Shown here: in pieces, positions 20,845-25,851 of the stretch | Layout of the letters: the number at the start of each line of letters is the position of its first letter | Numbering within the stretch: the first letter of the stretch is position 1 | Assembly (NCBI RefSeq): GCF_011045215.1 | Contig: NZ_CP049201.1 | DNA length: 64,000 bases | Strand: one strand, 5' to 3' | Origin: Escherichia coli | GTDB taxonomy: Bacteria > Pseudomonadota > Gammaproteobacteria > Enterobacterales > Enterobacteriaceae | Made by a program: the position numbers and the translations under genes | Notes under the pieces: generated by a model | The model's input: only the letters and a program-made list of their open reading frames with translations | Told to the model about the DNA's origin: nothing | The model's database searches: none

Positions 20845-20965
20845 GCCTGATGCGACGCTGGCGCGTCTTATCAGGCCTACGCAGGGTTAGAACCGTAGGT
20901 CGGATAAGGCGTTTACGCCGCATCCGACACGCATTGTCCGATGCCGCAAAGGCATAAAAAGTCGA
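20845..20965. repeat. REP/BIME cluster between dedD and cvpA
   Basis: gcctgatgcgacgctggcgcgtcttatcaggcctac and gtaggtcggataaggcgtttacgccgcatccgacac are canonical REP palindromes. Confidence 0.85.
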
Positions 20966-21093
20966 TGGCGTTGAATATTTTTTCAGCGCCATTTTTATTG
21001 ATGCGCGGGAAGGAAATCCCTACGCAAACGTTTTCTTTTTCTGTTAGAATGCGCCCCGAACAGGATGACAGGGCGTAAAATCGTGGGACACAT

Positions 21094-23230: not shown

Positions 23231-23800
23231 ATGAAACGACTCATTGTAGGCATCAGCGGTGCCAGCGGCGCGATTTATGGCGTGCGCTTATTACAGGTTC
23301 TGCGCGATGTCACAGATATCGAAACGCATCTGGTGATGAGCCAGGCAGCGCGCCAGACCTTATCCCTCGAAACGGATTTTTCTCTGCGCGAAGTGCAGGC
23401 ATTAGCCGATGTCACGCACGATGCGCGCGATATTGCCGCCAGCATCTCTTCCGGTTCTTTCCAGACGCTGGGGATGGTGATTTTACCCTGTTCAATCAAA
23501 ACCCTTTCCGGCATTGTCCATAGCTATACTGATGGCTTACTGACCCGTGCGGCAGATGTGGTGCTGAAAGAGCGTCGCCCGTTGGTGCTCTGCGTGCGTG
23601 AAACACCATTGCACTTAGGCCATCTGCGTTTAATGACTCAGGCGGCAGAAATCGGTGCGGTGATTATGCCTCCCGTTCCGGCGTTTTATCATCGCCCGCA
23701 ATCCCTTGATGATGTGATAAATCAGACGGTTAATCGTGTTCTTGACCAGTTTGCAATAACCCTTCCTGAAGATCTCTTTGCCCGCTGGCAGGGCGCATAA
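23231..23800 (+). CDS. ubiX: Flavin prenyltransferase UbiX
   Basis: 189 aa with N-terminus MKRLIVGISGASGAIYGVRLL. Confidence 0.95.
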   Translation: MKRLIVGISGASGAIYGVRLLQVLRDVTDIETHLVMSQAARQTLSLETDFSLREVQALADVTHDARDIAASISSGSFQTLGMVILPCSIKTLSGIVHSYTDGLLTRAADVVLKERRPLVLCVRETPLHLGHLRLMTQAAEIGAVIMPPVPAFYHRPQSLDDVINQTVNRVLDQFAITLPEDLFARWQGA

Positions 23801-23981
23801 CTCCGCTGTTGCCCTGTTTCAGGGCAATTTTGCAACCGCGATCAAATCCTCGACATTTTGTTTCTGCCATTCAATCGAAACGCTGCGATTCAACCGCTAT
23901 ACCTGTTATCTTCAACTTCAGGACAATAATGCAACGTCTTATTAACATATTTAACGTTGAATGTTACTGTTGTCGTCAAGA

Positions 23982-23997
23982 TGGCATAAGACCTGCA
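23982..23997 (+). promoter_or_regulatory. Candidate sigma54 (-24/-12) promoter upstream of argT
   Basis: TGGCAT-N6-TGCAT has the GG and GC dinucleotides at the canonical spacing, ~70 bp upstream of the argT ATG. Confidence 0.5.
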
Positions 23998-24065
23998 TGA
24001 AAGAGCCTGCAAACACACAACACAATACACAACATAAAAAAGCCATTTTCACTTGAGGGTTATGT

Positions 24066-24848
24066 ATGAAGAAGTCGATTCTCGCTCTGTCTTTGTTAGT
24101 CGGTCTCTCCGCAGCGGCTTCCAGCTATGCGGCGCTACCGGAGACGGTACGTATCGGAACCGATACCACCTATGCGCCGTTCTCGTCGAAAGATGCTAAA
24201 GGTGATTTTGTTGGCTTTGATATCGATCTCGGTAACGAGATGTGCAAACGGATGCAGGTGAAATGTACCTGGGTTGCCAGTGACTTTGACGCGCTGATCC
24301 CCTCACTGAAAGCGAAAAAAATCGACGCCATTATTTCGTCGCTCTCCATTACCGATAAACGTCAGCAGGAGATTGCTTTCTCCGACAAGTTGTACGCCGC
24401 AGATTCTCGTTTGATTGCCGCCAAAGGTTCGCCGATTCAGCCAACGCTGGATTCACTGAAAGGTAAACATGTTGGTGTGCTGCAGGGATCAACCCAGGAA
24501 GCTTACGCTAACGAGACCTGGCGTAGCAAAGGTGTGGATGTGGTGGCCTATGCCAACCAGGATTTGGTCTATTCCGATCTGGCTGCAGGACGTCTGGATG
24601 CGGCATTACAGGATGAAGTCGCCGCCAGCGAAGGATTCCTCAAGCAACCTGCTGGTAAAGACTTCGCCTTTGCTGGCTCATCAGTGAAAGACAAAAAATA
24701 CTTCGGTGATGGCACCGGTGTAGGGCTACGTAAAGATGATACTGAACTGACGGCTGCGTTTAATAAGGCGCTTGGAGAGCTGCGTCAGGACGGCACTTAC
24801 GACAAGATGGCGAAAAAGTATTTTGACTTTAATGTCTACGGTGACTGA
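24066..24848 (+). CDS. argT: Lysine/arginine/ornithine-binding periplasmic protein
   Basis: 260 aa with a signal peptide; paralogue of the adjacent hisJ. Confidence 0.95.
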
Positions 24849-25068
24849 TACGTCGCAGGGAAGCTGTGCCTGATGGAATGATCATCATGGTGCACGCCAG
24901 GTTTGTTGCACTATCGTGGTGCATTGAAATGCATACTTAAGCATTTTTAATGAAAAATAATACGCCTAACGGGGCGGGATATTTTGCCTTGATGGTCAAT
25001 TTTATGGCACGATAAGTGTAACAAACCTGTAAATATTCCCTATAAAAAGACTGTCAGTTGAGGACATT

Positions 25069-25851
25069 ATGAAAAAACTGGTGCTATCGCTCTCTCTGGT
25101 TCTGGCCTTCTCCAGCGCAACTGCGGCATTTGCTGCGATTCCGCAAAACATCCGCATCGGTACCGACCCGACCTATGCGCCATTTGAATCAAAAAATTCA
25201 CAAGGCGAACTGGTTGGCTTCGATATCGATCTGGCAAAGGAATTATGCAAACGCATCAATACGCAATGTACGTTTGTCGAAAATCCGCTGGATGCGTTAA
25301 TCCCGTCCTTAAAAGCGAAGAAGATTGACGCCATCATGTCATCGCTTTCCATTACGGAAAAACGTCAGCAAGAAATAGCCTTCACCGACAAACTGTACGC
25401 TGCCGATTCTCGTCTGGTGGTGGCGAAAAATTCCGACATTCAGCCGACAGTCGAGTCGCTGAAAGGCAAACGGGTAGGCGTATTGCAGGGCACCACTCAG
25501 GAGACGTTCGGTAATGAACATTGGGCACCAAAAGGCATTGAAATCGTCTCGTATCAGGGGCAGGACAACATTTATTCTGACCTGACTGCCGGACGTATTG
25601 ATGCCGCGTTCCAGGATGAGGTCGCTGCCAGCGAAGGTTTCCTCAAACAACCTGTCGGTAAAGATTACAAATTCGGTGGCCCGTCTGTTAAAGATGAAAA
25701 ACTGTTTGGCGTAGGGACCGGCATGGGCCTGCGTAAAGAAGATAACGAACTGCGCGAGGCACTGAACAAAGCCTTTGCCGAAATGCGCGCTGACGGTACT
25801 TACGAGAAATTAGCGAAAAAGTACTTCGATTTTGATGTTTATGGTGGTTAA
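25069..25851 (+). CDS. hisJ: Histidine-binding periplasmic protein
   Basis: 260 aa with a signal peptide; first gene of hisJQMP. Confidence 0.95.

Follow-up and report, generated by a model that had tools for sequence, protein, structure and literature searches.

Gene context and published control of hisJ

The window, by which we mean the whole 64-kb stretch of DNA analyzed here, carries purF, ubiX, argT, hisJ, hisQ, hisM, and hisP in that order, all on the + strand according to its list of open reading frames. E. coli chromosomes match it at 95-100% identity in BLAST searches, and argT and hisJ are annotated in RefSeq beneath the match. The feature under study is a palindrome in the 220-bp spacer between these two genes (24849-25068). 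The corresponding spacer of MG1655 has the same length and differs at 3 positions.

24066-24848, + strand: argT CDS, lysine/arginine/ornithine-binding protein, upstream neighbor of the spacer (open reading frame list, and RefSeq annotation under the BLAST match)
24920-24934, unstranded: reported palindrome TGCATTGAAATGCAT in the argT-hisJ spacer, spanning the junction of an NtrC box and ARG box 1
25069-25851, + strand: hisJ CDS, first gene of hisJQMP and the regulated gene (open reading frame list, RefSeq annotation)

Window position x corresponds to 2,451,857 - x in NC_000913.3 and to 2,449,879 - x in the older MG1655 numbering (v2). The older numbering was used for published NtrC peaks because it is consistent with those reported at argT.

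The initial annotation tied this locus to ArgR, and on that point it stands on firm ground, since hisJ is a recognized target of ArgR and its spacer holds ARG boxes (PMC6640053; ChIP-exo, PMC4381063). The link is not new, having already been published. Arginine-bound ArgR controls hisJQMP from two 18-bp ARG boxes that are 3 bp apart (PMC6640053, citing Caldara et al. 2007) and lie 17 bp upstream of the -35 element of the sigma70 hisJ promoter; repression is weak and direct and does not work by steric exclusion (PMC6640053). ChIP-exo found a single ArgR peak-pair at hisJ; each ArgR hexamer protected about 93 bp, and two of its subunits have been proposed to touch the DNA on either side (PMC4381063). 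Lrp is ruled out as an alternative regulator of PhisJ, as expression from this promoter is unchanged in an lrp mutant (PMC6640053). A full-text literature search for the sequences of the boxes found no paper that prints them.

The palindrome is ordinary as an inverted repeat

The palindrome is present as described: tgcattgaaatgcat was read directly from the window sequence at 24920-24934, 135 bp upstream of the hisJ ATG. Positions 24920-24933 form a 14-bp inverted repeat in which TGCATT and AATGCA flank a central GA, with 6/7 complementary pairs, and the core consists of the 5-bp arms TGCAT and ATGCA around TGAA. As a generic inverted repeat it is not unusual, with 78 14-mers of at least 6/7 pairs in the window compared to 87 +/- 8 in shuffles. 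The specific pattern TGCAT-N4-ATGCA occurs once in the window, with 0.20 expected, and appears at least once in 15 of 100 shuffles. The part of the neighborhood that rises above chance is its ArgR-like content, not the generic palindrome. Two other dyads, an FNR/CRP type (TTGAT-N4-ATCAA) and a LacI-family type (TGnAAnCGnTTnCA), were judged by eye and rejected, each having too many mismatches.

Variation within the species is sparse. Of 5,426 complete E. coli genomes, 5,278 carry an identical 44-mer around the palindrome, and among the rare variants of its center are TAAA (30 genomes) and TGGA (1 genome), which alter only bases between the NtrC box and ARG box 1. With 97% of genomes identical, this variation is too sparse to separate the models considered below.

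An ArgR-type signal with two possible registers in E. coli

In order to score ARG boxes, for which the class consensus was the 18-bp imperfect palindrome WNTGAATWWWWATTCANW, a symmetric 18-bp ArgR matrix was derived from the 20 boxes found in 10 MG1655 operators (argA, argR, argG, argD, argE/C, argF, argI, carA, artJ, and artP). Their box pairs were recovered by consensus-seeded refinement and agree with the classical ArgR operators, in which boxes occur in pairs 3 bp, or rarely 2 bp, apart. In leave-one-out calibration, true single boxes scored 1.1-21.8 bits and true operator pairs 21.2-38 bits. Four ARG-like boxes were identified in the spacer, ranked here over 63,983 window positions.

24918-24935, unstranded: ARG-box-like 18-mer GGTGCATTGAAATGCATA, the register of the initial annotation; 11.8 bits, rank 7 of 63,983, Escherichia-specific
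24928-24945, unstranded: ARG box 1, AATGCATACTTAAGCATT, the conserved box; 12.3 bits, rank 3 of 63,983
24938-24955, unstranded: ARG-box-like 18-mer TAAGCATTTTTAATGAAA, partner of the 24918 box with a 2-bp spacer; 9.8 bits, rank 10 of 63,983
24949-24966, unstranded: ARG box 2, AATGAAAAATAATACGCC, weak, 3 bp after box 1; 6.8 bits, rank 39 of 63,983

Scoring against an ArgR matrix had been proposed in the initial annotation, and on ours the palindrome 18-mer falls within the range of true boxes. The best pair of boxes in the entire window is 24918-24955, with a 2-bp spacer and 21.6 bits, followed by 24928-24966, with 19.0 bits, which is the best pair with a 3-bp spacer. When the 24918 box is instead given a partner at a 3-bp spacer, that partner scores 3.2 bits and the pair 15.0, compared to 9.8 and 21.6 bits with the 2-bp spacer, a spacing that also occurs among the operators recovered for the matrix (argR, artJ). 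Among dinucleotide-shuffled versions of the spacer, 5.5% contained a single box of 11.8 bits or more and 0.13% contained a pair of 19 bits or more. The ArgR-type signal in the hisJ spacer is genuine, and its register cannot be chosen from the E. coli sequence alone. At 19.0 bits the 24928-24966 pair is below the true-operator range, which would make it a weak operator, as published.

The third-best pair in the window is found elsewhere, in the dedD-cvpA spacer (20949-20987, 17.9 bits), just upstream of a PurR-box-like sequence, ACGCAAACGTTTTC (~21023-21036), and beside a REP-like element (~20900-20930). Its score is below the 21.2-bit minimum of true operators, and it is probably a chance occurrence.

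Geometry and orthologs favor the register that starts at 24928

Of the two best pairs in the window, 24928-24966 alone matches the 3-bp spacer of the published operator, and exactly 17 bp separate its end from a TTGCCT hexamer (24984-24989). With a start at 24918, a pair reaches only to 24955/24956, which leaves 28 bp or more to TTGCCT and 33 bp or more to TTGATG (24989).

Orthologs separate the registers further. We collected 80 enterobacterial hisJ loci, 78 of which have argT immediately upstream, and scored, in 58 orthologs from outside Escherichia, the sites that correspond to the four boxes of E. coli. Median scores were -0.8 bits for the 24918 register, 9.2 for 24928, -6.9 for 24938, and -0.6 for 24949 (box 2). 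The 24928-equivalent box keeps a constant spacing of ~140 bp to the ATG, and the 24928 register with a 3-bp spacer was the best pair in the spacer in 42 of these 58 orthologs. In an alignment of 12 genera (A2), an invariant TG of box 1 and an invariant TG of box 2 are separated by 21 bp, the ARG-box period. In Leclercia, Atlantibacter, and Silvania, the TGCAT of box 1 is replaced by TGAAT, a change toward the ArgR consensus.

Spacers from Cedecea and relatives (loci L060, L061, L064, and L068) and from Buttiauxella (L040-L047) do not contain the TGCATAsTTAAGC block of ARG box 1. Some of them are also missing TGGCAC, and the NtrC-like boxes are kept. ArgR control of hisJ thus appears to be absent in some lineages, as judged by the loss of this block.

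From this geometry, rather than from a published footprint figure, 24928-24945 most likely corresponds to the first box of the published hisJ operator, and the exact 39 bp footprinted by Caldara et al. would then be 24928-24966. The palindrome shares with that operator its gene, its spacer, and its protein, and the right arm AATGCAT is the first half-site of the assigned box 1 (PMC6640053). It is also built like bona fide ARG boxes, as 5-4-5 geometry and TGCAT half-sites occur in those of argR, argG, carAB, and artJ. However, it is displaced upstream by 10 bp relative to the conserved box, its left arm is outside the 39-bp operator assigned here, and it is not kept as a unit outside Escherichia. 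The proposal that the palindrome is an ARG box therefore holds for its core geometry and its 11.8 bits and fails for its register, which is off by 10 bp from the conserved box. Nor is it the conserved ARG box of hisJ, which fits the geometry and has only AATGCAT in common with it.

A conserved NtrC box accounts for the left arm

The consensus for NtrC (GlnG) is a 17-bp dyad, TGCACCAnnnTGGTGCA (quoted in PMC8743547), and two sites upstream of ARG box 1 resemble it.

24878-24894, unstranded: distal NtrC-like site ATGATCATCATGGTGCA, with a perfect right half (TGGTGCA), a poor left half, and mismatches at 4 of 14 positions
24907-24923, unstranded: proximal NtrC box TGCACTATCGTGGTGCA, which departs from TGCACCAnnnTGGTGCA at 1 position; the left arm of the palindrome begins with the final four bases of this box

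The proximal box matches 13 of 14 consensus positions and is the sole match with at most 1 mismatch in the 64 kb, where 0.02 were expected. The GTGC of its right half and the GGTGC of the distal site are both invariant across the 12 genera of the alignment, and in Salmonella enterica subsp. diarizonae the position aligned with the proximal box carries a perfect NtrC consensus (0 mismatches). Across the family, NtrC-like boxes with at most 3 mismatches recur in phase near -165, -136, and -114, counted from a conserved TGGCAC. Those of Escherichia are at about -145 and -116 relative to TGGCAC (25005), and the 29 bp between the distal and proximal sites is also the spacing of the -165 and -136 boxes in other genera. 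The palindrome's left arm, TGCA (24920-24923), is fully explained by this conserved NtrC box.

Occupancy of the spacer by NtrC has been published. ChIP-seq of nitrogen-starved E. coli placed peak 12 at hisJQMP (2424941-2425021 in v2 numbering) with an enrichment of 23.7, compared to 5.4 for the argT peak (PMC4066584). By coordinate conversion, the hisJQMP peak corresponds to 24858-24938 of the window and covers both NtrC sites. In genomic SELEX for NtrC and RpoN, the region upstream of argT gave a peak, and no peak is listed for the argT-hisJ spacer (PMC8743547). Upstream of argT, no NtrC consensus with at most 3 mismatches was found in the window, which fits the weaker argT ChIP-seq peak. The sigma54 promoter of argT, TGGCATAAGACCTGCATG (23982-23999), is identical to the Salmonella argT promoter given in PMC3844500.

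NtrC sites usually occur about 100-150 bp upstream of a sigma54 promoter with a -24 GG and a -12 GC, commonly with a second site. Compared to known NtrC enhancers (PMC8743547, PMC4066584), the left arm forms the TGCA end of a box that lies under a ChIP-seq peak, and the arrangement resembles the typical one, with the hisJ box ~116 bp upstream of TGGCAC and a half-conserved second site 29 bp further up. The palindrome itself was rejected as an NtrC dyad, which it does not fit, being 14 bp long and not 17. The locus also differs in the -12 element, which in Escherichia is GT, not GC.

Putative promoter elements upstream of hisJ

24984-24989, + strand: TTGCCT, putative sigma70 -35 of PhisJ, within the invariant block TTTGCC of the alignment and at the published 17-bp distance
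25005-25020, + strand: TGGCACGATAAGTGTA, a conserved sigma54-type -24 with a degenerate -12, GT instead of GC in Escherichia

The assignments of TTGCCT as the putative -35 of PhisJ and of a possible -10 draw on conservation and on the published 17-bp distance. A simple sigma70 consensus scan of 23700-25200 found no promoter. A weak terminator-like hairpin, CGCCTAACGGGGCG followed by GGATATTTTG, is situated at 24963-24976 between ARG box 2 and the putative -35. K-12 has a weaker form of this hairpin (CGTC...), and other genera do not conserve it.

The sigma54-type element TGGCACGATAAcTGCA upstream of hisJ is conserved in most Enterobacteriaceae, and all Escherichia sequences have TGGCACGATAAGTGTA, with the GC of the -12 changed to GT. 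Most other genera carry TGGCACGATAACTGCA at this place. The Escherichia sequence can alternatively be read as an extended -10 (TGgCACGAT), 18 bp after TTGCCT, and from these matches the sigma70 and sigma54 promoters may overlap at 25005-25020. The hisJ gene has been classed as a sigma54 target, and astC and hisJ have both been named as ArgR-regulated sigma54 targets (bioRxiv 10.1101/276808).

At hisJ, the NtrC sites come first, followed by the ARG boxes and lastly by a -24/-12-type element. The control region of astCADBE reportedly has the same order, with NtrC sites, ArgR sites, and a sigma54 promoter. There, however, ArgR is said to help activation, in contrast to the published weak repression of the sigma70 promoter of hisJ.

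Proposed origin of the palindrome and alternative readings

Taken together, we consider that the palindrome is probably an Escherichia-specific junction of two known sites, an NtrC box and the ArgR operator, both of which contain TGCA, and that it is not a regulatory unit itself. In the alignment, a 21-column gap in Escherichia is located exactly in the palindrome center, between GGTGCATT and GAAATGCATAC. In other genera the two arms are ~21 bp further apart, and the intervening segment often carries a third NtrC-like box; we infer that the segment was deleted in Escherichia. How far the NtrC half-site (TGCAT) is from the ARG half-site differs among genera, with 2 bp in Kosakonia, 3 bp in Pseudocitrobacter, and 4 bp in Escherichia, and only the 4-bp spacing mimics an ARG-box core.

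Under this model, the proximal NtrC box (24907-24923) and the weaker distal site (24878-24894) would recruit phosphorylated NtrC under nitrogen limitation and activate hisJQMP. The right arm AATGCAT (24928-34) would be the left half-site of ARG box 1 (24928-24945), which together with box 2 (24949-24966, 3-bp spacer) would form the operator for arginine-bound, hexameric ArgR. From 17 bp upstream of the -35, ArgR would weakly repress the sigma70 hisJ promoter. With the ~21-bp segment missing in Escherichia, the two half-sites would by chance have come to be 4 bp apart, producing the mimic. This analysis contributes the sequence matches, the pattern of conservation, and the coordinate overlap with the NtrC ChIP-seq peak; that ArgR binds and represses at hisJ and that NtrC occupies the spacer is taken from the literature. 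Some observations run against the model: on the E. coli matrix the 24918-24955 pair scores slightly higher (21.6 bits) than the favored 24928-24966 pair (19.0), ARG box 2 is poor in most other genera (median -0.6 bits), and the NtrC gSELEX data have no peak in the argT-hisJ spacer.

The first of these observations bears on the reading that the palindrome is a working ARG box in Escherichia, either as a third box or as the first box of an alternative register (24918-24935 with 24938-24955, 2-bp spacer), with ArgR contacting the TGCAT at 24920 and overlapping the NtrC box. The score of the palindrome 18-mer and its rank of 7 agree with such a role, as does the fact that the 21.6-bit pair, the best in the window, arises in fewer than 0.1% of spacer shuffles. 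Furthermore, the four ARG-like boxes are offset by 10-11 bp and would thus be on one helix face, and ChIP-exo saw ~93-bp protection per hexamer, with two subunits proposed to be on flanking DNA (PMC4381063). The identity of the 44-mer in 5,278 of 5,426 E. coli genomes could be added, but near-identity inside one species is expected anyway. Against a working box, the published operator has a 3-bp spacer and is 17 bp from the -35, whereas the 24918 register ends at least 28 bp from any plausible -35; both of its boxes are unconserved outside Escherichia (medians -0.8 and -6.9 bits), its left arm is fully explained by the NtrC box, and ChIP-exo has a single peak-pair at hisJ (PMC4381063). We regard this reading as unlikely, although the absence of conservation outside Escherichia is compatible with a lineage-specific function.

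That the palindrome arose by chance in an AT-rich spacer, with neither arm having a binding role, is in keeping with generic 6/7 palindromes being as common in the window as in shuffles and with TGCAT-N4-ATGCA appearing in 15% of shuffled windows. However, both arms are within blocks in which some columns do not vary over the 12 genera (GTGC in the NtrC box, TG.ATA in box 1), and both match independently defined motifs far above chance. For the arms, chance is largely refuted by this conservation, and we give the reading little credence. A role at the RNA level, with the palindrome acting as a hairpin, terminator, or stabilizer in the 3' region of argT, is the least probable and in our estimation barely tenable. 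The palindrome can form a 5-6-bp stem, and E. coli has no obvious strong hairpin right after the argT stop, where several genera have GC-rich ones. Its fold, however, reaches only -5.5 kcal/mol (z = -1.6), is equaled by 15 of 200 shuffles, and has no adjacent U-run; folds of longer context pair the NtrC and ARG box 1 palindromes instead. A terminator scan made no call, the sole Rfam match had an E value of 0.88 and is noise, and the arms are not kept together in other genera.

Strong hairpins directly after the argT stop were seen in Klebsiella, Franconibacter, and Buttiauxella, and not in E. coli. The lack of one in E. coli would fit read-through from argT into hisJ.

Implications

ArgR repression of hisJQMP and NtrC binding in the spacer have both been published, so that the value of these results is mainly the correct annotation of the site. 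They also carry a caution for motif scanning, as a good-looking palindrome can arise from two neighboring sites that share the core TGCA. The matrix score from a single genome (11.8 bits) would place an ARG box 10 bp out of register, and phylogenetic footprinting fixes the register.

A more speculative possibility, which we think improbable, is confined to Escherichia. There, the loss of ~21 bp may have created an ARG-like box (24918-24935) that overlaps the NtrC box by 6 bp, so that arginine-bound ArgR could extend a fifth subunit over the NtrC site, or shift to the register 10 bp upstream, and directly antagonize or reshape NtrC-dependent activation of hisJQMP. If true, this would be a lineage-specific wiring of arginine and nitrogen signals that is absent in Salmonella, Citrobacter, and Klebsiella.
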